A stretch of 64,000 nucleotides of DNA from an uncultured Bacilli bacterium (GCA_934096295.1 CAKOLL010000001.1:180229-244228), one strand, 5' to 3'. Positions 6,037 to 57,044 are shown, counted from the stretch's first letter. Made by a program: numbers and translations. The notes: generated by a model not told the origin, from the sequence alone.

Positions 6037-6113
6037 TGGTGTCCTCGATGAGAATTGAACTCATGACCCTATGCGTCGGAGGCATATGCTCTATCCAACT
6101 GAGCTACAAGGAC
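6037..6113 (-). tRNA. tRNA-Arg (anticodon CCG)
   Basis: Minus-strand sequence GTCCTTGTAGCTCAGTTGGATAGAGCATATGCCTCCGACGCATAGGGTCATGAGTTCAATTCTCATCGAGGACACCA folds as a cloverleaf. Acceptor is 7 bp, anticodon loop is CTCCGAC, T-loop is TTCAATT and CCA is encoded. Confidence 0.85.
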
Positions 6114-12624: not shown

Positions 12625-14181
12625 TTAATTACTTTCTGTATATTCTGTAGGTTCGTATACAGTACCAGCAAACCAAACGTCTTTTGTGTTTTTATCACGA
12701 ATTAAGAACATAAATGGTTTATCAAATGTTATATCTATTTCTTTAACTGGTACTTTGTAAATATAGTCAAATCCACAAGATGTATCTCCGGCTCCTCCCC
12801 CTTCGGTAGCAGCAGCAGCTTTTATTCCTTCATTCGAAAATTCAATATTTGCTTTATGTTTTATTTCACTTATGTATGCGCTTTTGTCACTTGTTAAATT
12901 TAGTAAAGAGGCATGAGCTGGTTCAAAAACATTTTTTATACCTAAATCTTTTAAATTATTTTTTAAGTCTAGGGCATATTCAAACTTATAAAGAGGTATT
13001 AAACCACGAATACTTGTAATTACACCTTTTTCAAAATTATTTAGTTCAATAGCTTTTAATTTAGAGATATAATCATTTAATTTATCTTTATCTGTGTTTT
13101 TTATAAAACTATCTAAAGATTCAGTTCTAGGCATAAATGCTATATATTCTAATGATAGTTCATTATAATCTTTTAATTCTTTTTGAAAAACTTTAATATT
13201 ATCATCAATATAGAATGTGTAGTCTGTTGATGTTGCAACATCTTTATAGTTCTTATATATTTCTTTTATATAATTATCTAAGAATGTTTTAGTATCTTCA
13301 TACGTACTTTGGTCACAATAGTCATGACTAACCCATTCTTCATATTTTTCACCGACGAAATCTCTGATATTTTGTTCTCCGAGTTCACCAACAATATCAT
13401 AATTGTTAATTGCTGAACCTATTTCTACGGCATTTACTTCTTTATCATTAAATTTCAACTTACTGTAAACATCATCCATTATTGGCCCAATATACATAGC
13501 ATATTCTTCATGGGCATAACTTACTCCGAAATCCATTCCAGTATATGAGTGCTTTTCATCAAAGAATTCTTTGCCATTTATAGGTTGAATTGGATTTTTC
13601 CATTCCATATCAATAGCTAGAGCATTAATTAGTAAGAAATTTAGGTCTGAGACATCTTCGAGTAAATTTGGAATCAAACCAAAAGTCTTATTTTTAACCC
13701 ATTTATTAACGTTATCTGGAGTTTTAAAGGCATCATATATAATTTCGGCATTACAATTATCTTTTAATAATTTAATGTAGGAATCTTTAACACTCTTTTT
13801 ATATGAATCTTTAATAAACATGGAATTAGCAAGAGATGCATTCATAGTATTTGTATATTTTTTAGCTTGGAAATTACCTAAAACATTTTCTATTTCCGTG
13901 TGGGCATTATCTGTTGTGGCATCACTAAGCATACTTAAAGCATATTTTATGGAAAGCGGACTATAAACGATATTTTTATTTTTTCCACCAGTTTTCATAA
14001 AGTATAAATCAAATGCACTTAAAGCATTATCATTTATTTTATATGCTGAGTTATTATTAACAACTGATGTATCAAATTTATCATTTTTATTTTTAGTTAG
14101 TAATAAATATATAACTAAAGCAATTAATAAACTTAGCACAATACTTGATATAATTATTATTTTCTTTTTATTCTTTTTCAT
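12625..14181 (-). CDS. Serpin family serine protease inhibitor with N-terminal membrane anchor or signal
   Basis: 518 aa. N-terminal TM (IIIISSIVLSLLIALVIYLLL). Serpin N-terminal signature IVYSPLSIKYALSMLSDATTDN and breach region FLLINALAIDMEWKNP. Reactive-centre loop and hinge EGIKAAAATEGGGAG, then C-terminal FDKPFMFLIRDKNTKDVWFAGTVYEP. Confidence 0.8.
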   Translation of the reverse strand: MKKNKKKIIIISSIVLSLLIALVIYLLLTKNKNDKFDTSVVNNNSAYKINDNALSAFDLYFMKTGGKNKNIVYSPLSIKYALSMLSDATTDNAHTEIENVLGNFQAKKYTNTMNASLANSMFIKDSYKKSVKDSYIKLLKDNCNAEIIYDAFKTPDNVNKWVKNKTFGLIPNLLEDVSDLNFLLINALAIDMEWKNPIQPINGKEFFDEKHSYTGMDFGVSYAHEEYAMYIGPIMDDVYSKLKFNDKEVNAVEIGSAINNYDIVGELGEQNIRDFVGEKYEEWVSHDYCDQSTYEDTKTFLDNYIKEIYKNYKDVATSTDYTFYIDDNIKVFQKELKDYNELSLEYIAFMPRTESLDSFIKNTDKDKLNDYISKLKAIELNNFEKGVITSIRGLIPLYKFEYALDLKNNLKDLGIKNVFEPAHASLLNLTSDKSAYISEIKHKANIEFSNEGIKAAAATEGGGAGDTSCGFDYIYKVPVKEIDITFDKPFMFLIRDKNTKDVWFAGTVYEPTEYTESN

Positions 14182-18267: not shown

Positions 18268-18335
18268 TATAATTCACCCTTACATATAGTTTATCAAAAT
18301 TATTAAGAAAAGTCATTATAATGTGTTAAAATACT

Positions 18336-19517
18336 TTATTTATTTTGGGGTATTCTTTTTAAAGTTATATCTTTTTCGCTACTTAATTGTTCTTCTATTT
18401 TCTCACTGTAAATTTTTAATATTTCAATTTCATCAGAGAAAAATAAATTTAGACCATGGATAATATTGATAAGATCTGTTGCATTCTTTTTTCCTAAACC
18501 AGTGATTAATGGTAGATCTTTTCTTTTAAATTTTATAATATCACCGATAGTTGTTAAATAGTGATGATTTTCACTTAAGGGGTTTACTAATCTTTTTTTA
18601 AATCCTAAACTGTATAGTTTTATAGTTAATAAAGCATCAAGTGGTAATTGTAATTCTAATAGTTTTTGAGTTTTGATATCAATTGAATCAAAATTTGCTA
18701 AGTATGTATCCACCTTTTTGTATAGTGGAACAAAAATCCCTAAGCTTTCTAAATCATACAATAACTCTTTAGAAATTGTTTCATTTGTTGATGTAATAAA
18801 TTTTAAAACATCTCCGGTTGTTTCCAATCTTGTATGGTATTTATATAAATTTCTATAAGGTTCTAACTCGTTATTATGAATTAAAAAACTTGCTCTTAAA
18901 TTTTGTTTATTTGGATATGAAATTGTTAATTTTAAACGTTCTTCTTCAGTTAAATCATCAATAAATTTTAAATTCATATCTGCAATAGGTTTTGAAACTT
19001 CTTTTATTAAAGTTTCAGAAATTTCTAAAGATAATAAATCACTTTTGGCATATGACAATAATTCACTTAAATAACCTATTCCAACCTTTGCAAAAGTCAT
19101 TAAAGTTCTATTGGTTAGTCCTAGCTCACCTAAAGGCATATTTTCTAGACTTTGTTGTTTTTCAGATAGTTCTATAGTACTTGGATTTTTATATTCGCTA
19201 ATACTCTTTGTTTTTATATACATTGAAATAGTTTCTTTTCCTCGAGTTATTATTTGTCTTACTCTTTCTGGAGTTTTAGATATTTTTCTGCTAATTGATC
19301 TTAATGACTCACAATTACCTGTAAGTATTCCAAAATGCAATCTTAAAACATAGGTACCGGTTTCATTTAAAGGTGCTACACAATTCATATTTAAATCAAA
19401 TAGTTTTGTTGTAATATCTTTAATTATTTCTGCTCTTCTTTGAAAGCTTGCTAAATATTCATAATCTTTACCAAAAGTATCTATGGCAATATATTCATAT
19501 AGTTCATTAAAATTCAT
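18336..19517 (-). CDS. Hypothetical protein carrying a sigma-70 region-4-like HTH module
   Basis: 393 aa. Residues around 55-100 (LRLHFGILTGNCESLRSISRKISKTPERVRQIITRG) resemble sigma-70 region 4.1/4.2. HhH-like segments follow (LGELGLTNRTLMTFAKVGIGYLSELL; ITGLGKKNATDLINIIHGL). Confidence 0.5.
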   Translation of the reverse strand: MNFNELYEYIAIDTFGKDYEYLASFQRRAEIIKDITTKLFDLNMNCVAPLNETGTYVLRLHFGILTGNCESLRSISRKISKTPERVRQIITRGKETISMYIKTKSISEYKNPSTIELSEKQQSLENMPLGELGLTNRTLMTFAKVGIGYLSELLSYAKSDLLSLEISETLIKEVSKPIADMNLKFIDDLTEEERLKLTISYPNKQNLRASFLIHNNELEPYRNLYKYHTRLETTGDVLKFITSTNETISKELLYDLESLGIFVPLYKKVDTYLANFDSIDIKTQKLLELQLPLDALLTIKLYSLGFKKRLVNPLSENHHYLTTIGDIIKFKRKDLPLITGLGKKNATDLINIIHGLNLFFSDEIEILKIYSEKIEEQLSSEKDITLKRIPQNK

Positions 19518-19583
19518 ATTTTATCCCCCTTAGTTATAGCTATATTCTATCACAAATACATAATTTTGTCAAAAACTGTAAAG

Positions 19584-21989
19584 TTATTTAAGACGTTTAA
19601 GAATACTTTCATCTAAAATAATTGTTTTTCCGAATGTTGTTTGATATGTATCTAGGCATTTTTTTATAAAAGTTATACCTCTTTGGATACGTGTTGATGC
19701 AGCACTTAAATTTATATTCAAGCTTAATGCAATATCTTCGGTAGAATATTTTGTCCCATCAACCAGCCCAAAATATAACATGAATGGTTTGCGTATTTCA
19801 TCAGGCATAACATTAACCAAATCATAATAAACTTGGCTTACTTCTTCTTTTGTTTTAGTATTATTACTCTTAGTAATGTCTTTATTAATATCTTGCATCC
19901 TTTTTTCATCCAATCTTTTTTGCAAACCTTTTATTAATAACATTAAGTTCTTACTTTCATGTACATTTAATTGATTTAGATAAGGTTGATCTAAATTTTC
20001 TCCGAAAGCTTTTTTTAGCAATAAGTTTTCTTGTATCTCTGGGATTGATTCAATCTCACATTCTAAAATTTCATTTAATTTTTTTCGTAAGAACGGAGTC
20101 GGTTCATTAACTTTTCGACGAAGTGATGTGATATTATTATAAAAGTATGTTTTATCTTTTTCATCCATATTTGTTAAATCAGCATCTAAGTCAAAGTTTG
20201 AGCCATAATATTTAATAAGCATTTGATAAAATTTTGTATCCTTGTTTAAAGAATTTATAATAATACTTAATTCTTCGATAGTTACATTTAATAACTCCCA
20301 CAAGGCTTTTCTTTTACTTTTTTTCTTTGCCTCAGCTTTTTCAAGCGGAGTATTATTTTGACTTGGCCAAAAATTCACTCTTTTCATTCGATATTTCCAT
20401 CTAGTTAATTTATCATGAAATAATGTTTTTTCATATTTTGAAAGTAAATTATAGTTACATTTATCTGTTCCTTCTTTTCCAAAAGCTTTTACCATTATTT
20501 GATAAATTATAGTACTTTTATCTTGAGTTTCCCAGAGAAATTTAATTCTTTTACACATTTCTTCATATTCTAAAGTTTCTTTATTATAATCATTTAAAAA
20601 TTCTATTAGTGTTTTACAATATTTTTGGTCTTCTTGTTCTTTAATACACTTATAATATTTTGCTAACATCTTATCAATAACAAGTTTAATGTCTTTTTGA
20701 TTAAATTTACTTGGAACTACTTTCAAAGTCAAATTATTTCCAAAATTTTTGTATAGTATATTTTGAGCAGATGATTCTTGCTGTAAAACTAAGGCATATA
20801 TATCTTCTTCTTTTAAAGGTAAATACTCTAACAAAGATATTTTTATTACTTTTGAACAAGCACGCATTTTTTCCAAAGCTTTTTTCTCTTTTTGACGAAT
20901 TGTTTCTCTGGTTACATTATATATTTTGCTAACTTCTTCTAGAGTTTTATTTTCAATAAATCTTAATGTTATTATTTTTCTTTCTTCATCATTTAAACAT
21001 GATAGTAATTGATTTAATGTTAATATATTTATTGAGTCATCTTCAAATTCTCCGGATTTTAGAAATTGATACATACTAGAATTTTCATGTTCTTCGGGAT
21101 TTAAAGGAGCATCTAGAGATATATTTTCTGAAAAAGTCATTAACAACTTAGATAAGGCATCAGTTTCCATATGTAAAAAAGATGCAATTTCTTCTAGAGA
21201 TGGTTCTTTATCTAACTTATAAGATAAAATTTTTAATGCTTCAAGGTATTTATTATAAATTATATGTTGATTAATTGGGATTCTTATTGTTCTTCCTTTA
21301 TTTAAAATAGCTCTATTTATATATTGTCTTACCCAATATGTGGCATATGTACTAAATAAAAATCCTAAAGATGCGTTATATTTTTCCATTGCTTTAATCA
21401 TACCTATGGTTCCTTCATTTATTAAATCTAATTTTTCTAAGCCACAATTTAAATGTTTATTTGCAATAGATACAATTAATCTTAAATTCCCTTCGATAAC
21501 TTGATTTTGATAAAAAATATACTTTTTTTGATAATACTCTTTTTCTTCTTTTGAGATAGCTTTTTCATATAGTTCTTTATATTCTTGAAACTTAATTACA
21601 TATGCTATAGATGTTTCTCTTTTCATCGTGGGAATGTCACTTAGTTCTTTGAAAAACAAATTATCAGCACTTAAGTTTGCTGTTTCTTCAAATGTGTAAT
21701 TTAAATTGTCTTCTAAAAGTATATTTTTAATACTGGCATAAACATAGATGATTCCTCCGTTTATATCTCCGAATCTTTTATAGATTTCATCTTCCGTATA
21801 TTTATTTTTTCCTCGTAAGAGTTGGGCAAAATAGTTATCAATTATTGAACTTTTTTCTAACGCTTTAAGCATAAATGTAAAAATATCTTCAACCTTATTT
21901 TCAGTTAAGATGGAATTTATATAACTTAATTTTATATTACTTGTTTCTATTTTAGATTCAATATCTTTTATAATATTATCAAAATCCAT
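19584..21989 (-). CDS. Giant sigma-70 family protein: a sigma-A-like core with about 430 aa of C-terminal repeat modules and a second terminal HTH
   Basis: 801 aa. Region 1.2-like segment (DNLFFKELSDIPTMKRETSIAYVIKF). Region 2 (EGNLRLIVSIANKH...DLINEGTIGMIKAMEKY...FSTYATYWVRQYINRAI...RTIRIP). Region 3. Region 4 (ITLRFIENKTLEEVSKIYNVTRETIRQKEKKALEKMR). Then repeated KNFGNNL, KAFGKEG, KYYGSNFD, KAFGENLD modules. Terminal LYFGLVDGTKYSTEDIALSLNINLSAASTRIQRG is region-4-like. Confidence 0.75.
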   Translation of the reverse strand: MDFDNIIKDIESKIETSNIKLSYINSILTENKVEDIFTFMLKALEKSSIIDNYFAQLLRGKNKYTEDEIYKRFGDINGGIIYVYASIKNILLEDNLNYTFEETANLSADNLFFKELSDIPTMKRETSIAYVIKFQEYKELYEKAISKEEKEYYQKKYIFYQNQVIEGNLRLIVSIANKHLNCGLEKLDLINEGTIGMIKAMEKYNASLGFLFSTYATYWVRQYINRAILNKGRTIRIPINQHIIYNKYLEALKILSYKLDKEPSLEEIASFLHMETDALSKLLMTFSENISLDAPLNPEEHENSSMYQFLKSGEFEDDSINILTLNQLLSCLNDEERKIITLRFIENKTLEEVSKIYNVTRETIRQKEKKALEKMRACSKVIKISLLEYLPLKEEDIYALVLQQESSAQNILYKNFGNNLTLKVVPSKFNQKDIKLVIDKMLAKYYKCIKEQEDQKYCKTLIEFLNDYNKETLEYEEMCKRIKFLWETQDKSTIIYQIMVKAFGKEGTDKCNYNLLSKYEKTLFHDKLTRWKYRMKRVNFWPSQNNTPLEKAEAKKKSKRKALWELLNVTIEELSIIINSLNKDTKFYQMLIKYYGSNFDLDADLTNMDEKDKTYFYNNITSLRRKVNEPTPFLRKKLNEILECEIESIPEIQENLLLKKAFGENLDQPYLNQLNVHESKNLMLLIKGLQKRLDEKRMQDINKDITKSNNTKTKEEVSQVYYDLVNVMPDEIRKPFMLYFGLVDGTKYSTEDIALSLNINLSAASTRIQRGITFIKKCLDTYQTTFGKTIILDESILKRLK

Positions 21990-22068
21990 ATGTATCCCCC
22001 CGGTTGCGATTTATTATAACATAAAACCTAAGAGTTTTGTATATAATTTTTATAAAGAAGGAGTTATT

Positions 22069-46773: not shown

Positions 46774-47817
46774 TTATTCATTATCGCTATTATTTTCATT
46801 TAAATATTTATTATAAAATTCATCCATTGAAGAAATGTATTTTTGATCTTGTATAACTCTAAATTTTTCATATTCTTTTTCAGCTTTTTCTACTACTTCT
46901 TTATGTGATATACTGCCACTATTATTTAATACTTCTTTTCTTCTAAACTTTAATAAATCATCAGTTGCATCTATCCATTCTTTCATTGTCATAACATGTC
47001 TTTGTTTTGCTTCATCTTCGGCAAATACTAAAAACATATTTGTTAAATCTTTTAAATTGTTCATTTCTTCTTCGTTTAAATAATTTTTTGCAATAATCAC
47101 ATCATATTTATATATTAAACCATCAGGAGAATTTTTCCAAGTTGTTAATCCCATATGCTCTTCTTTTGAATTAGCCCTTTTAAAAATAAGTTCCGCAGCA
47201 GTATGTCCACTTATAGCATAGTGCAGCTTATTTTGAACTATTTTAAAGAAAGTATAAGCGTCTTCTGATTTTGGATTGTAATCTGCTGCTGTTGCAATAA
47301 ATAAATCAGTGATTTTTTGATATGCCATTCTTTCACTTACTCTGATTGTTTTGATACGTTCTAATAATTCATCAAAATATTTTGCATCATATTTATTTCC
47401 ATTTATAAAACGTTCATCATTTAATGCAAAACCCTTTGTCATATATTCTTTTAATATTTTTGTTGCCCATATTCTAAATTCTGTTGCTTTTTTAGAATTA
47501 ATTCTATAACCCACAGCAATTATAGCATCAAGACTATAAACTTCAGTATTATAGTTTTTTCCGTCAGGTGCAGTTATTTCCATTTTGGAAACAACTGAAT
47601 TTTTATCTAATTCGTTTTCTTCAAATATATTTTTTAAATGTTTTGATATTGCTGGTACACCAACCTCGAAAACTTTTGACATACCTTTTTGTGATAACCA
47701 TAAAGTTTCATCTTTATAAATAGCATCTACTATAATATTACCTTCACTATTTTTATATATAATTAATTTATTATCTTCCATCAATACTCTCCTTTCCTTT
47801 AGTTTTTCATAAGTCAT
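46774..47817 (-). CDS. RhuM family virulence/defence-island protein
   Basis: 347 aa. IIYKNSEGNIIVDAIYKDETLWLSQKGMSKVFEV...YNTEVYSLDAIIAVGYRINSKKATEFRIWATKILKEYMTKGFALNDERF matches the RhuM N-terminal signature. Confidence 0.75.
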   Translation of the reverse strand: MTYEKLKERRVLMEDNKLIIYKNSEGNIIVDAIYKDETLWLSQKGMSKVFEVGVPAISKHLKNIFEENELDKNSVVSKMEITAPDGKNYNTEVYSLDAIIAVGYRINSKKATEFRIWATKILKEYMTKGFALNDERFINGNKYDAKYFDELLERIKTIRVSERMAYQKITDLFIATAADYNPKSEDAYTFFKIVQNKLHYAISGHTAAELIFKRANSKEEHMGLTTWKNSPDGLIYKYDVIIAKNYLNEEEMNNLKDLTNMFLVFAEDEAKQRHVMTMKEWIDATDDLLKFRRKEVLNNSGSISHKEVVEKAEKEYEKFRVIQDQKYISSMDEFYNKYLNENNSDNE

Positions 47818-49846: not shown

Positions 49847-52800
49847 TTATTGAGAATTTTTTACTCTATGCAATGTGGAATCATAATGTATAGATTCTTT
49901 TGAATTAGTAAATGTTTTATTATAAGCGTTAATAACAGTTTTTATAAAAGTCATACCAGTATCAACTTTTAAAGATACTTCTTCTTCACTTATTCTTAAG
50001 AATTTTGCTATTTGTTTAATAGAATATTTTTCATTAAATATTCCTAGAAATAAATATAATATCAGTTTATAATCTTCTGGCATAAAATCTATTATGACTT
50101 TATAATATTTTTTTAAGTTTTCTGCATCGTTATTAAGGTTCGTTGTTTCTTCTTTTGAGGTTCTGCTTTTTATTTTTTCTTTTAAATTATTTATTTTAAT
50201 TCGAAGAATATTTTTTTCATTTTTGGTAAGATAAGAAGTATCATAAGTTTTAGTAAAATCACTACCAAAAACTTTAACAAATAATGAATATATTTTAGTA
50301 TTTTTACGTTCACTATTAAATATATTTAAAACTTCTTCATAAGTTATACCCAAAATAATATTAAGTGTCTTGCCATCATTTCTGCTTTTTCTGTTTCTTG
50401 TTATATTTTGTCTACTTTTATTGTTTATTCTATTTTTTATTTTTTCTAAGGTTTTAGCTAATACCGCTAAAGAAACATTATTTATAAACTTTAAATCGAG
50501 ATTTTCTCCGAAAGCCTTAGTAAGCACTTCCAAATTTGTAGGGGTTGCTACCAATTTTATATCGCTTAGGCTTTCATTAATTAATTCTTCTAGAGTTTTA
50601 CCTTTATAAATATTATCCTCTTGAGCTATTTTACTTAATATATCAAGCCTTCTTAATAAAAGGGCATAATCGTTTTCAGAGAATTTACTTTTATCAAGGA
50701 ACTCATTTAAATCATTACCAAAAGCTTTATAAAGATCTTCATTTTTATCTAAGGCATTCATAAATCTTTCTGTGTCTTCATATGATAGTCCCAATATTTC
50801 ATTTAATTTTTTAGAATTGAATATATCAGTTTCTTGTTGTTTTTTATCCATAAGTTTACTTATTTTGCTTACTACTTTGCTTTTTTTATCTATTCTTTTT
50901 TTTATTTTTTCTAAGGTTTTAGCTAATATTGCTAAAGAAACATTATTTATAAACTTTAAATCGAGGTTTTCTCCGAAAGCCTTGGTAAGTACTTCCAAAT
51001 TTGTAGGGGTTGCTACCATTTTTATATCGCTTAGGCTTTCATTAATTATCTCTTCTAGAGTTTTACCTTTATAAATATTATCTTCTTTGGCTATTTTACT
51101 TAACATACCAAGTCTTCTTAATAAAACGGCATAATCTTTTTCAGAGAATTTACTTTTATCAAGGAACTCATTTAATTCATTGCCAAAAGCTTTATAAAGC
51201 TCTTCATTTTTATCTAAAGCATTTACAAATCTTATTGTGTCTTCATAGGATAATCTCAACATTTCATTTAATTTTTTAGGACTGAATGTATCTGCTCCTT
51301 GTTCTTTTTTACTCATAAGTTTACTTATCTTGCTTACTACTTTGCTTTTTTCATAATAACTTAAATTATCTAAATTACAAATTCCTTTTCCATCTGGGCC
51401 AAAAGCTTTTATAAATATATTTGATATTGTGTTGTCTTTTCTTGTTAATTCTTTCCATAGTAAATCTATATTATCTAAAGCAAATATTTCATTTAAAGTT
51501 TTGCCACTATACTCTTTACCATAACTTTTGTAATCATTATTAATTATGTTTTTTACTGCTTGTTTTAGATATGTTGCCTCTTTAGAATTCAAATTATCTT
51601 TATAAACTTCATCTAAATTTGGACCAAATGCTTTGTAAAATAAAGTTCTAATATAAGTTGAAACTTTTGCACAATAATCAAAATCATTAACCTTTTCTTT
51701 TCCAATTAAATCTATTAAGGTTTTACCATTTAAAATGATTCTTTCATTTTTTTCACTTTGAATGCTTTTTGTGTTATTTTTCAAGAAATTTTGCATTTTT
51801 CCTAAAGCTTTTTCTTCAATTTGTCTTACTCGTTCTCTAGTCATTTTGTACATTTTGCCAATTTCTTCAAGAGTATAATCTTCTCCATATCTTTTGGTAA
51901 TTATGTCTTTTTCTCGTTCAGTTAAACATTCTAAAAATGTTAATACCGCTGTTTTATTTACAATGGCTTCTTCTAAATTAATTTTATCTGGTACAAAATT
52001 ATAACGATTTGTTTCTGTATCATCTTTTACCTCGGCATCTAAAGATGTTAAAAAGCCAATATTATTTACTAGTTCTTCAATATTAGCACAATCTTCATTC
52101 ATTTCATCTGCTATTTCTTTAATTGATACTTCTCTTCCTAAAGTATTAGTTAATTTTTCCTCAACTTTCATAACTTTTCGGTATTTTTCTTGAACACGGA
52201 CGGGAATTCTTATATTTCTTTCTTTGTTATGAATGCTACGCGTAATCAAAGATTTAATCCAGTAATATGCATAACTTGAAAATGAGGAACCATAACTAAA
52301 ATCATAATAATCAATTGCTTTAGACATACCAAAGAATCCTTCATTAACTAAATCAAGTAATGTCATATCCGTAGATGCTATTTTTTTTGCAATATATACA
52401 ATTAAACGAATATTTCCCTCGATAATTAAATTACGGTATTTATCGCAAATATCTACTTTACCAAGTGATTTAGCTTCTTGATAAATTTTAATATATTTTA
52501 AAGTATCTTCTTTTGATAATATGGGTAAATCCGACATGTCTTTAAAAAACAAATCAACTGAATCTAAAGAATTTATATTTATTTCTTTATAATCAATTAT
52601 TTCTTCTTTAATTAAATTTTTTATTATTCCGTAACTCGTAAGGATATTTCCATTTAGTTCTCCGTACCTTCTAATAAGTTCTTCCTCTGTATATTTTTTA
52701 TTAGAAAAAAAGCTAGATAAATAACTATCTATAGTAGGATTTTCACATAATAATGCCATGAATTTAATACCATTTTCTATATTTTTATCTATTAAAATAT

Positions 52801-52906
52801 TGCTAAAATCTTGTAGGGATATAGTTTTATTATTTATTTTTTCCACTAAAACTTTTATAATTTCTTGCATAACAAACCTCCTGATGAATTTATTATAACA
52901 CGGCAA
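49847..52906 (-). CDS. Giant sigma-70 family protein, paralogue of the 801-aa one. A sigma-A-like core is followed by about 640 aa of C-terminal repeat modules and a terminal HTH.
   Basis: 1019 aa. N-terminal segment is paralogous to the 801-aa protein (IDSYLSSFFSNKKYTEEELIRRYGELNG... against IDNYFAQLLRGKNKYTEDEIYKRFGDING...). Region 2 is EGNIRLIVYIAKK...DLVNEGFFGMSKAIDYY...FSSYAYYWIKSLITRSI...RNIRIPV. Region 4 is TLEEIGKMYKMTRERVRQIEEKALGKM. Many [KY]AFG-x-[ND]L modules follow. Terminal KYSIKQIAKFLRISEEEVSLKVDTGMTF is HTH-like. Confidence 0.75.
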   Translation of the reverse strand: MPCYNKFIRRFVMQEIIKVLVEKINNKTISLQDFSNILIDKNIENGIKFMALLCENPTIDSYLSSFFSNKKYTEEELIRRYGELNGNILTSYGIIKNLIKEEIIDYKEININSLDSVDLFFKDMSDLPILSKEDTLKYIKIYQEAKSLGKVDICDKYRNLIIEGNIRLIVYIAKKIASTDMTLLDLVNEGFFGMSKAIDYYDFSYGSSFSSYAYYWIKSLITRSIHNKERNIRIPVRVQEKYRKVMKVEEKLTNTLGREVSIKEIADEMNEDCANIEELVNNIGFLTSLDAEVKDDTETNRYNFVPDKINLEEAIVNKTAVLTFLECLTEREKDIITKRYGEDYTLEEIGKMYKMTRERVRQIEEKALGKMQNFLKNNTKSIQSEKNERIILNGKTLIDLIGKEKVNDFDYCAKVSTYIRTLFYKAFGPNLDEVYKDNLNSKEATYLKQAVKNIINNDYKSYGKEYSGKTLNEIFALDNIDLLWKELTRKDNTISNIFIKAFGPDGKGICNLDNLSYYEKSKVVSKISKLMSKKEQGADTFSPKKLNEMLRLSYEDTIRFVNALDKNEELYKAFGNELNEFLDKSKFSEKDYAVLLRRLGMLSKIAKEDNIYKGKTLEEIINESLSDIKMVATPTNLEVLTKAFGENLDLKFINNVSLAILAKTLEKIKKRIDKKSKVVSKISKLMDKKQQETDIFNSKKLNEILGLSYEDTERFMNALDKNEDLYKAFGNDLNEFLDKSKFSENDYALLLRRLDILSKIAQEDNIYKGKTLEELINESLSDIKLVATPTNLEVLTKAFGENLDLKFINNVSLAVLAKTLEKIKNRINNKSRQNITRNRKSRNDGKTLNIILGITYEEVLNIFNSERKNTKIYSLFVKVFGSDFTKTYDTSYLTKNEKNILRIKINNLKEKIKSRTSKEETTNLNNDAENLKKYYKVIIDFMPEDYKLILYLFLGIFNEKYSIKQIAKFLRISEEEVSLKVDTGMTFIKTVINAYNKTFTNSKESIHYDSTLHRVKNSQ
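50390..51350. repeat. Near-perfect tandem duplication (2 copies of about 465 bp) inside the 1019-aa sigma gene
   Basis: Two protein repeats of about 155 aa (SKVVSKISKLM[SD]KK...YKAFGN[ED]LNEFLDKSKFSE...TKAFGENLDLKFINNVSLA[IV]LAKTLEKIK) with about 90% identity. Matching DNA strings, e.g. TTTTTCTAAGGTTTTAGCTAATA at about 50441 and about 50906. Antisense ORFs 50370-50609 and 50772-51074 are near-identical. Confidence 0.75.
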
Positions 52907-55208: not shown

Positions 55209-57044
55209 TTATTTTTTTCTTATTAAACTAGCTTCTTTAGGACAACCATCGTAAAAACTATCTCTTTGAGAATCCTTAACACAATATTCTAAATTATGAT
55301 AATTCCTTTCTAATAAAGTTTTAATTTGTTCACGTTCTAATAATGGAGCGTATAATTTCCTTAATGAAGTATTTTCTTCTAGAAAACTTTTCATGACTAT
55401 TTTTAATCTAGGAAAACAGGCTATAGAGATTTTGTTATTTTTTAGCAAAAATCCATATTTAGCTAACTCTAGACTTGGCAATATTATTTCTGGTAATTCT
55501 TCGTTTTTCAACAAGAAATAATCTCCGACTTCTGCTAAAGATGGAGCATATAAAATTCTACATTTTTCATTATCAGAAAGAAAACTATGTCCTACTTTTT
55601 CTAATTTAGGTAAATAAACCTCTTGTGCTTGGCATACTTTTAGAGAAAAATGTCCTACTGTTTTTAAGGATGGAAAAAACAATTTATTTATTGACTCATT
55701 TAATTCTAAAAACTCAGAACCAACTATTTCTAGTTTAGGCATATTTACCCTTTTTAGAATAACGTTATTAGTCATAAAACAATCGCCAATTTCAACTATA
55801 TTTGGTAAATCAATTTCTTTTAGTCCAAAGTTTTTATATAAAAAATATGAACCTATACTTTGACAATTATTAATTGATAAAATTTCAAGAAATGTTGCAT
55901 TTTTTAAAACGTAATCTCCGATAACTTTTGTAGATGGTGATCTAAATTCAATTATTTCTAAATCTTTTGTTGATAAAAATCCTTTGGGGAGTTCATTTAC
56001 ATTTTCTAAAAACATTTTTTTGATTCTATTAAAATGGTTTACAATTAATTTTGCATATTTGCCATCAGCATTAAAGATTTCAACAATTTTATTTTCTTTA
56101 TCTTTTGTAATTGTAATTTTTTCAATATGATTAAAAACTCTAGGAAATGTTTCTATATAAACCTCATAATCGTTAATATATTCAATATATGATGCATAAG
56201 TATCTATGTATTTTGATTCTAATTCTATTATGAAATTATCAATTACTAAATATTTATTTTTATCAAAATGTTCTACCTTAAAATTTTTAATTATAATATT
56301 ATCTGGGCAATAATAAGTATTATTTCTTTCAAAATTGTATTTATAGTATTTCCCATCATTAGCTAACACATAATTTTCAAGTTCAAATTTAGAAGATTGA
56401 TGATTTTGTTTTAATCCATACGTTTTTTCAAAACTTTCAGTTAAACCTTCAACTATTCTATCTAAATCATTTCCAAAGGTTGCATCGGGATTGTCTACAC
56501 TATGATTATATCGGTTCTTTATTGATAATATATGTGATTTATCTTTAGTAAACTGAATACTTATTACAGATGTACCATAAGCATCTTCACGTTTTGGATT
56601 TTTATAGTCTTCTCTTTTTATTTCAGCAACATTATCTTTAACTGCAAAAAACACTCTGCACTCGGATAATCTTTCTTGCCTAAATGTACATAGTTTTTCA
56701 CCTTTAGCATAATACTTTTTAAAAGCCTGTACTTCTTCTTCTGTATGACACTCTACTAAAGTATACCCAACTGATTTCATCAACTCCTCTGGAGTTTTAT
56801 TACATTTATTTTGTTTTATATCCAAATTTTTTGAAACATATATAAATTCAATAAATTGTGACTGTTTATGATTTTTCTTTATATCATTTAATAAATTATG
56901 ATTTTCGTGAAATTTACTTAACAATCTACTTGATAAAAATCCGGGTGTTTCTAAAAGCGATGCAAAATTAGCTCTACAAAAGTGCATCATATCTTCCCCA
57001 AATTTCTTTTTTATTATTTTTAAATCATCCATCTTTACCCCCAA
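55209..57044 (-). CDS. Cytoplasmic protein with an unknown N-terminal 330-aa domain and C-terminal BspA-type leucine-rich repeats (LRR_5)
   Basis: 611 aa. No signal peptide. C-terminal half has about 8 reiterated units of about 23 aa ending in [IV]G-x-x-F[LS], e.g. IVEIGDCFMTNN, LEIVGSEFLELN, LKTVGHFSLKVC, LEKVGHSFLSDN, LAEVGDYFLLKN. Confidence 0.6.
   Translation of the reverse strand: MGVKMDDLKIIKKKFGEDMMHFCRANFASLLETPGFLSSRLLSKFHENHNLLNDIKKNHKQSQFIEFIYVSKNLDIKQNKCNKTPEELMKSVGYTLVECHTEEEVQAFKKYYAKGEKLCTFRQERLSECRVFFAVKDNVAEIKREDYKNPKREDAYGTSVISIQFTKDKSHILSIKNRYNHSVDNPDATFGNDLDRIVEGLTESFEKTYGLKQNHQSSKFELENYVLANDGKYYKYNFERNNTYYCPDNIIIKNFKVEHFDKNKYLVIDNFIIELESKYIDTYASYIEYINDYEVYIETFPRVFNHIEKITITKDKENKIVEIFNADGKYAKLIVNHFNRIKKMFLENVNELPKGFLSTKDLEIIEFRSPSTKVIGDYVLKNATFLEILSINNCQSIGSYFLYKNFGLKEIDLPNIVEIGDCFMTNNVILKRVNMPKLEIVGSEFLELNESINKLFFPSLKTVGHFSLKVCQAQEVYLPKLEKVGHSFLSDNEKCRILYAPSLAEVGDYFLLKNEELPEIILPSLELAKYGFLLKNNKISIACFPRLKIVMKSFLEENTSLRKLYAPLLEREQIKTLLERNYHNLEYCVKDSQRDSFYDGCPKEASLIRKK

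Follow-up and report, generated by a model that had tools for sequence, protein, structure and literature searches.

Introduction

To our knowledge, the four-region plan of sigma factors is regarded as essentially fixed, save for N-terminal and non-conserved inserts and for the C-terminal sensor domains of extracytoplasmic function (ECF) factors. In factors of the ECF41, ECF42 and ECF56 types, a sigma core without region 3 carries a fused C-terminal extension, be it a SnoaL domain, a TPR domain or another (PMC7826278, PMC7730460). Here we describe a sigma factor that is extended in a different manner. It is encoded in a stretch of 64,000 nucleotides from an uncultured Bacilli bacterium (GCA_934096295.1 CAKOLL010000001.1:180229-244228), referred to below as the window, which has a GC content of ~25% along its whole length and was analyzed for the open reading frames (ORFs) of both strands. 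The gene in question, p1, codes for a giant member of the sigma-70 family, in which the core is followed by an array of modules derived from its own region 4; a smaller gene next to it, p2, codes for a further protein with a sigma region 4.

How does p1 compare with the systems described so far? With the ECF factors mentioned above it shares the general order of a core followed by a fused extension that probably modulates the sigma factor in cis; however, their extensions are unrelated folds, whereas in the p1 family it is domain 4 of the protein itself that has been copied, up to ~20 times in a row. Regions 2 to 4 of the p1 core are collinear with, and ~35-40% identical to, those of the group 1 and group 2 sigma-70 factors (SigA/RpoD and RpoS), with which p1 also shares the canonical recognition helix of region 4.2 and the motifs of regions 2.1-2.4. 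In contrast to these, p1 is about twice as long, with ~420 extra C-terminal residues that comprise sigma-4-derived repeats and a second sigma-4-like domain; moreover, it has another N-terminal domain, substitutions in region 2.3-2.4 and a genomic context without dnaG, and it fails the equivalog cutoffs for the group. MzaA of the MZA anti-phage system is likewise a large sigma-70-family protein (~700 aa), and its model matches the p1 core. Yet this match reaches 185 bits against 800 and is confined to profile positions 463-708 of 726, PADLOC finds the core only, the extra mass of MzaA is N-terminal and unrelated, and no MZA partner genes are present at p1. Finally, UPF0122/YlxM, the phage minimal sigma and the gp33-like helix-turn-helix (HTH) proteins are single domains with an HTH, whereas the module described here has no first HTH helix, carries an additional helix at its N-terminus and is strung together in long tandem arrays.

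A first-pass annotation of the window had proposed a sigma-70 protein with a C-terminal array of region-4-like units and a second region-4-like HTH, and this core claim is supported by hidden Markov models (HMMs), by profile-profile comparison and by structure prediction. We regard p1 as a functional, chromosomally fixed initiation factor of the sigma-70 family, acting as an alternative sigma, which belongs to a large family with region 4 tandemly duplicated behind the core; to this reading we assign a probability of roughly 55%. The architecture is surprising and, for so well-studied a protein family, widespread; its anatomy is clear and its function is predicted.

An intact sigma factor with a conserved extension

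The 801-aa and 393-aa ORFs of the first-pass annotation are both intact (Table 1). From the N- to the C-terminus, p1 consists of an acidic domain, sigma-70 regions 2, 3 and 4, four modules of ~70-85 residues each and a terminal four-helix domain that resembles sigma region 4. The protein recurs at 99% identity on 18 contigs from different samples with its neighbors unchanged, and four independent assemblies have the gene order rpsP, KH, FNT, sigK (divergent), p1, p2, polA, fpg, serpin in common. About 40 homologs of 871-877 aa are collinear with p1 from the first to the last residue, with an identity of 46-51% in MAFFT alignments and 40-50% in BLASTP; their main difference from p1 in the MAFFT alignment is one extra repeat. 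The layout is also shared by more distant members of 823-1090 aa. Between P0017 and P0037, identity amounts to 81% in the core, 58% in region 4, 52-68% in the modules and 68% in the terminal domain. The modules are thus kept about as well as region 4 among orthologs, which argues for ordinary purifying selection on the array.

The acidic N-terminal domain (residues 1-120) matches no family in Pfam, and HHalign connects it significantly neither with region 4 nor with the module; it might conceivably play a part akin to that of region 1.1. An 'RFGD' motif at residue 72, considered as an additional module, found no support (HHalign 6.6%). In the core that follows, Pfam detects regions 2, 3 and 4 in order and above their gathering cutoffs (49.4 bits with a cutoff of 24, 30.2 with 25.3 and 78 with 24.1, respectively), and it lists a second, weak region-4 stretch. 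The earlier description of a complete 1.2-2-3-4 core holds for these three regions, but region 1.2 is below Pfam detection: neither region 1.1 (PF03979) nor region 1.2 (PF00140) has a match in p1 at E <= 1, and the 1.2-like motif FFKELSDIPTMKRETS was recognized by eye only.

The best matches of the core among PDB sequences are primary SigA and RpoS (E 1e-45 to 1e-42). The motifs of regions 2, 3 and 4 are retained, including the R-E-x-x-R-Q helix that reads the -35 element, which is canonical in p1 (TRETIRQKE) and in its relatives (TRERIRQKE). In region 2.3-2.4, the SigA sequence FSTYATWWIRQAITRA corresponds to FSTYATYWVRQYINRA in p1, with TCW and SINRA in relatives; in the family, the tryptophan of region 2.3, invariant in all aligned SigA/RpoD sequences, is replaced by tyrosine or cysteine, and the threonine that reads position -12 by asparagine. 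Furthermore, p1 scores below all SigA/RpoD equivalog cutoffs, with 193 bits versus 354 for RpoD_Cterm (TIGR02393) and 175 versus 572 for PRK09210, the Bacillota-type SigA. A dnaG-sigA operon is typical of Bacillota, whereas p1 is flanked by the divergent sigK, by p2 and by polA, as the first-pass annotation had correctly remarked. Nor is p1 an ECF factor, which would have regions 2 and 4 only, since it contains region 3; some proteins elsewhere in the module family do possess a core of just regions 2 and 4. Thus, p1 belongs to the sigma-70 family but, by its scores, its lack of detectable regions 1.1 and 1.2 and its context, probably not to group 1, and it stands outside any named subgroup. 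Its earlier designation as sigma-A-like has to be narrowed accordingly: the core is RpoD/RpoS-like, and hence group-1/2-like, but the SigA cutoffs are missed and positions that read the -10 element differ. Given these scores, the substitutions in region 2.3-2.4 and the presence of two paralogs in one window (p1 and p3, see below), p1 is most likely an alternative sigma rather than SigA.

The repeat module derives from region 4

Five motifs with a central 'FG' had been noticed in the extension. They are real, but instead of five equal copies they mark four modules and the terminal sigma-4-like domain. To what are the modules related? When 450 non-redundant module instances were compared with 68 non-redundant segments of genuine region 4 in HHalign, the two profiles matched at 94.2% (P 1.1e-7) over 64 columns, as compared to 0.1-0.8% for the controls, which were region 2, region 3 and reversed sequences. 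In this alignment, the module pattern 'L...k.il..ryG.nL' falls on 'L..rEk.Vi..RfGl' of region 4, about eight residues are deleted at the first HTH helix, and the reading residues of the region-4 motif TrERIRQIE have no conserved counterpart. What the modules retain is a hydrophobic core like that of region 4.1 and the [RK][FY]G turn, and each of them has gained a short amphipathic helix at its N-terminus. The profile homology to region 4 is therefore present, but a complete HTH with -35-reading residues is not.

This link becomes clear only with the 450-instance alignment, as narrow family slices yield only 5-32% between region 4 and the modules, and it exists at the profile-profile level only, the module profile having no significant match among PDB sequences. 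In the other direction, the module HMM matches the genuine region 4 of p1, P0064 and o548. Proteins with 18-21 modules are matched as a whole by the Pfam r4 and r4_2 models and by NCBIfam sigma models with E-values of 1e-10 to 1e-17, scores that are built up entirely of numerous partial hits on the region-4.1 half; single modules lie under the Pfam threshold. As judged from these profiles, the four modules share ancestry with one another as well as with region 4, and they form a new repeat family derived from that region.

The individual modules of p1 differ in how closely they keep to the common pattern. A useful reference is P0052, a distant homolog of 1090 aa that has eight very clean repeats of ~73 aa behind its core. 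In HHalign comparisons of p1-family slices, M1, M4 and the M2/M3 subtype recognize the P0052 repeat or one another at 91-99.8% (Table 1), and M5 reaches 52% against M4 or the P0052 repeat. The M2/M3-subtype module, of which p1 has one copy and the 871-877-aa relatives two, stands out by its lengthened first half and by an FWP tail, and its direct match to the module HMM is weak (E 0.019-0.03).

The AlphaFold2 (AF2) model, which covers residues 310-801 of p1 (492 residues), shows the genuine region 4 and the terminal domain as four-helix units. A module consists of a short helix (LxELL), two helices leading to the FG turn, a loop and one long helix, with the loop pairing as a beta-bridge with the segment that precedes the first helix. 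The first-pass annotation had asked whether the modules form HTH units in such a model; they do not, but are truncated sigma-4 derivatives. The predicted local distance difference test (pLDDT) is ~80-90 per domain and the predicted template modeling score (pTM) of the whole is 0.34, so that AF2 predicts folded beads without a fixed mutual arrangement. Modeled singly, a module attains a pLDDT of 82.7 and a pTM of 0.64. In Foldseek, this single-module model had no match, and the 492-residue model had only weak matches to whole sigma factors.

The terminal domain is an intact four-helix unit that resembles sigma region 4. In HHalign, the slice of the family that covers it has a 93.7% match with genuine region 4 (E 1.8e-7, 64 columns), its four helices are modeled with a pLDDT of 85-94, and the SigZ model of NCBIfam matches it with an E-value of 1.6e-4. 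The second region-4-like HTH claimed for the C-terminus is borne out by these comparisons, but not by Pfam alone, where the region-4 model stays under threshold (E 0.07).

Census of the module family

When 1.84 billion cluster representatives were searched exhaustively with HMMER, a module profile of 15 sequences retrieved 521 proteins at E <= 1e-3, each standing for a cluster at 50% identity; 180 of these remain at E <= 1e-10 and 54 at E <= 1e-30. The longest has 1862 aa, and the number of matched stretches per protein ranges from 2 to 21. As to their layout, among the best 147 of the 521 a full sigma core is followed by modules in 45, including 21 with a terminal unit like sigma-3/sigma-4, and a short N-terminus with region 2, with or without region 4, precedes the modules in 14. 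Another 27 have modules and a terminal sigma-4-like piece with no region 2 detected, and 55 have modules only; these two groups probably include fragments and cores missed by the profile. In all 147, the amino-acid composition is strongly AT-biased. The samples that carry p1-type proteins are gut metagenomes throughout, human ones where the sample names tell (Hadza), and the host lineage is an uncultured, apparently spore-forming Bacillota of the human gut with a GC content of ~25%. It is related to 'Firmicutes bacterium CAG:460', whose S16 protein is identical to the one encoded in the window.

The family seems to have gone unnamed. None of ten members that were looked up has a name in any source, and no model in Pfam, NCBIfam, PHROGs or PADLOC covers the module; Pfam has nothing significant over residues 385-720 of p1, and PHROGs and PADLOC match its sigma core only. 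Among 50,697 phage records searched by tblastn, there are no homologs of p1 residues 383-801. In the literature, we found nothing on sigma factors with a reiterated region 4 or on fusions of sigma-4 with the C-terminal domain of the RNA polymerase alpha subunit (alpha-CTD), the survey of Iyer & Aravind (2012) lying outside this coverage. The suggestion that the extension belongs to no described family is in keeping with these results.

A tandem pair of module proteins is found in another uncultured lineage (L089, 5178-13273), where P0072, with 1607 aa and 18 modules, adjoins P0052 with overlapping stop and start. The pair is preceded by Tad-pilus genes (TadE, CpaE-like, T2SSE, T2SSF) and followed by spoVE and spoIIP.

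Possible roles of the array

What can be discerned from this architecture about the role of the extension? Region 4 of a sigma factor in the holoenzyme ends on the beta flap, next to the upstream border of the promoter. From this geometry, an array attached to that end would be expected to project upstream of the -35 element as a flexible arm, into the region that alpha-CTDs and activators normally occupy. We tentatively propose, at somewhat less than even odds, that such an arm adds upstream contacts to DNA or protein. The modules would then act as spacers or protein-docking units rather than as sequence readers, and their number would determine how far out the terminal sigma-4-like HTH makes contact with DNA or with a partner protein. 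One might further imagine that the extra N-terminal helix of each module caps the groove by which a real sigma-4 binds the tip of the beta flap.

Several points weigh against this proposal. Binding of p1 to RNA polymerase (RNAP) and its use of promoters are themselves predicted. The modules are not notably basic, their isoelectric points (pI) ranging from 5.1 to 9.2, and orthologs show little conservation in the recognition helix of the terminal domain, which weakens the case for sequence-specific reading of upstream DNA; together, these two features argue against a conserved function of that kind and keep protein-binding and regulatory roles alive. Lastly, the modules precede the core in 6 of the best 147 of the 521 family proteins, a layout that an upstream arm emanating from region 4 leaves unexplained.

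A bolder version, of which we are more doubtful, would see in the giant sigma factors, with their 4-21 tandem sigma-4-derived domains, an undescribed class of initiation factors in low-GC gut Bacillota, whose arm replaces jobs of alpha-CTDs and activators. These jobs could include contacting distal upstream DNA, docking partners and bridging several polymerases, with the number of modules setting the reach, and p2 would follow the same logic as an accessory that stands by itself.

The main rival to the upstream arm is regulation in cis, in which the modules or the terminal domain would shield region 2 or the genuine region 4, or compete with either, until a signal is received. Extensions of the ECF41/ECF42 type do regulate their sigma factors in cis, and the ingredients for such a mechanism are at hand: the region-4.1 core is retained in the modules, as is the [RK][FY]G motif, which is located at the beta-flap interface of region 4, many family members end in a second complete sigma-4, sometimes in sigma-3 plus sigma-4, and no anti-sigma gene adjoins p1. 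That the recognition helix varies in the terminal domain also fits protein binding better than DNA reading. However, inhibition would not call for 4 to 21 copies, the extension has no sensory domain, and in the AF2 model, with its low pTM, it does not dock on region 4. We consider auto-inhibition unlikely as the main role of the array.

Could p1 or p3 instead be the housekeeping primary sigma factor of a lineage with a reduced genome, its extension an embellishment peculiar to that lineage, much like the non-conserved region of E. coli sigma-70? The PDB and NCBIfam searches, in which the core comes closest to SigA/RpoD and RpoS, the canonical -35-reading residues and an acidic N-terminal domain that could serve as region 1.1 would fit, as would the universal synteny of the p1 gene in the clade. 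The absence of a canonical sigA from the window could be cited as well, but says little, as the window represents ~5% of the genome. The missed SigA cutoffs, the missing Pfam signal for regions 1.1 and 1.2, the exchanged residues of region 2.3-2.4 and the position away from dnaG all speak for a different status, and two to three divergent paralogs per genome are typical of alternative sigmas. On balance, a primary sigma factor appears quite improbable.

Still less credible is a role in defense, in which the modules would lure away or sense phage proteins directed against region 4, such as AsiA-like or ORF67-like ones, in a sigma factor related to defense like MzaA. It could account for the wide range of copy numbers (2 to 21), the tandem paralogs and the variable slot beside the gene (see below), and the MzaA model does match the core; this match, however, is to the generic core, no PADLOC or PHROG family matches the module, and the tblastn search of phage records gave no homologs of the array or of p2. 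Orthologous modules are, moreover, under ordinary purifying selection, and the locus sits in stable core-genome synteny with housekeeping genes. The possibility raised by the first-pass annotation against itself, that the ORF is an assembly or frameshift artifact joining a normal sigma gene to a downstream gene, has nothing in its favor and is ruled out by conserved full-length orthologs, given the identical architecture on at least 18 contigs from different studies, the end-to-end collinearity of the 871-877-aa homologs and the layout shared by the 823-1090-aa members.

Under our preferred reading, an alternative sigma with a duplicated region 4, the family amplifies the sigma factor's own promoter- and flap-binding domain into arrays, an unexpected way of building a sigma factor. 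Sequences resembling -10 elements are everywhere in extremely AT-rich genomes; if the arm does contact upstream DNA or partners, it would represent a new route to promoter selectivity in such genomes. The module is a compact domain of ~75 residues, confidently modeled by AF2, with natural variants of 2-21 stretches and, in one species, a natural sigma-4/alpha-CTD fusion beside the gene. It merits a family model of its own, as the proteins of the family are at present annotated via their core alone.

Genomic context and promoters

The coordinates of p1, its domains and the neighboring features are collected in Table 1.

Table 1. Features of the p1 locus, in window coordinates
Feature	Residues	Position	Strand	Basis
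p1, giant sigma-70-family factor, 801 aa	1-801	19584..21989 (incl. stop)	(-)	Intact ORF; Pfam r2/r3/r4; full-length homologs; four independent assemblies
p1 acidic N-terminal domain	1-120	21630..21989	(-)	Conserved in ortholog alignment; pI 4.5
p1 sigma core	121-384	20838..21629	(-)	Pfam r2 165-233, r3 246-302, r4 328-377; 1.2-like motif by eye
p1 module M1	385-454	20628..20837	(-)	Module HMM domain E 9.4e-11; family slice vs P0052 module 96% (HHalign)
p1 M2/M3-subtype module	459-540	20370..20615	(-)	M2 vs M3 99.8%, M3 vs M4 91% (HHalign); AF2 helices
p1 module M4	561-636	20082..20309	(-)	Family slice vs P0052 repeat 93% (HHalign)
p1 module M5, more degenerate	637-700	19890..20081	(-)	Module HMM domain E 3e-8 over 654-699; AF2 helices
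p1 terminal sigma-4-like domain	723-801	19587..19823	(-)	Four helices with HTH; nearest ECF-type region 4
p1 extended -10 element TGTTATAAT		22013..22021	(-)	24 nt upstream of p1 ATG; GGGGGGA ribosome-binding site between
Pro-sigma-K-like gene, 231 aa		22069..22764	(+)	NCBIfam NF004471 SigK subfamily, 307 bits vs cutoff 252
p2, species-specific sigma-4 + alpha-CTD-like protein, 393 aa		18336..19517	(-)	Intact ORF; variants of 92-99% identity in many assemblies
p2 complete sigma-4 (region 4.1-4.2)	37-112	19182..19409	(-)	Region-4 HMM E 1.9e-11
p2 first alpha-CTD-like (helix-hairpin-helix) domain	119-180	18978..19163	(-)	Pfam RNA_pol_A_CTD, best stretch 119-164
p2 second alpha-CTD-like domain	279-368	18414..18683	(-)	PDB 8dkc_A, RNAP alpha 238-326, E 8e-5; Pfam E 0.003 on fragment
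p2 promoter: TTGACA, 17-nt spacer, TG-n-TAGAAT (11/12), then ribosome-binding site AAGGGGGA		19544..19572	(-)	Near-consensus
p3, second giant sigma paralog, 1007 aa from ATG		49847..52870	(-)	Module and region-4 HMMs; Pfam r2/r3/r4

The gene divergent from p1, which had been annotated as pro-sigK, passes the SigK subfamily model and codes for a protein with a hydrophobic N-terminus resembling a pro-sequence. The divergent pair of sigK and a giant sigma gene is preserved in six loci, namely in the window and in the comparison loci L081, L090, L092, L093 and L028, and it persists with members that are only ~25-30% identical in their extension. In contrast to this constancy, the slot between the giant sigma gene and polA is variable: it is empty in L081, holds a second sigma paralog of 747 aa in L093 and a pair of 548 and 832 aa in L028, and is occupied by p2 in the window (18268-19583).

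In every giant-sigma gene examined (p1, p3 at ~52895 on the minus strand, L081, L090 and L028), an element of the form T[AT]TG[TC]TATAATA is found 22-28 nt upstream of the start; a strong ribosome-binding site follows it, and no clear -35 element is seen. The TG-n-TATAAT consensus, on which this assignment rests, would suggest a vegetative-type rather than a sporulation promoter.

The paralog p3, which had escaped the first-pass annotation, has the same N-terminal domain and core as p1, followed by ~8 modules and, at the end, by a sigma-4-like domain; the two proteins align collinearly with 30% identity (E 2e-70). The start of p3 is taken to be the ATG, in view of 99.8% identity to P0069, although the ORF list begins 12 codons earlier at a TTG. 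With 170 bits, it too is under the cutoff of 354 for RpoD_Cterm. It is not located beside dnaG; a 611-aa ORF nearby is without a DnaG match. This ORF (55209-57044, minus strand) and another of 347 aa (46774-47817, minus strand) have no NCBIfam match at E <= 1e-3.

p2, a fusion of sigma-4 and alpha-CTD-like domains

The neighboring p2 had been thought to begin with the same module as the p1 array. Instead, it begins with a complete sigma-4: in HHalign, residues 37-112 match the region-4 alignment at 96.3% and the module alignment at 0.3%, so that p2 was dismissed as a carrier of the repeat. The PDB sequences matched by this domain are region 4 of RpoS and SigA. It is 33% identical to an internal region 4 of the 747-aa paralog in L093, including the junction motif that follows, suggesting that p2 arose from a remnant of such a paralog.

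Behind it, the helix-hairpin-helix-like segments noticed earlier turned out to be alpha-CTD-like. The Pfam family RNA_pol_A_CTD (PF03118) scores 33.9 bits versus 23.8 over two stretches, NCBIfam rpoA models match too, and the second domain finds a solved alpha-CTD sequence in the PDB (Table 1). With at least two such domains, p2 resembles the RNAP alpha-CTD; it differs from alpha in that these domains are fused to a sigma-4, a combination present in no searched library, and in that the alpha N-terminal domain is missing. As it is also under the rpoA cutoffs, p2 is not an ortholog of RpoA. Residues ~205-270 are likely a third, degenerate alpha-CTD-like copy, recognized by eye only, a single-sequence HHalign repeat test having given no information.

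Homologs of p2 were confined to its own 90% cluster in a word-indexed search of 5.8 billion sequences, and there was no match among the 50,697 phage records (tblastn) or in PHROGs and PADLOC. In the sister species represented by L081, synteny is kept and p2 is absent. By its domain matches and distribution, p2 is a young, recently acquired, species-specific protein composed of two kinds of RNAP promoter-contact domains. Promoter-like matches around p2 are no commoner than in shuffled sequence; only the position and quality of the site listed in Table 1 count.

Further observations

A different and smaller addition to a sigma factor appears to exist in related Bacilli. In Candidatus Faecimonas gallistercoris (L034, 1779-5060), a 306-aa sigma, a 218-aa protein and a 563-aa sigma are encoded in a row, and the C-terminal extension of the latter duplicates the 218-aa protein.

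As for RNA genes, one tRNA (6040-6113, minus strand) is the only Rfam match above the gathering threshold in the window, which has no riboswitches, rRNA or other known RNA families by this search. Serpins are uncommon in bacteria; the one encoded here (518 aa, 12625-14181, minus strand) has an N-terminal transmembrane or signal segment and is found downstream of fpg in all related loci.

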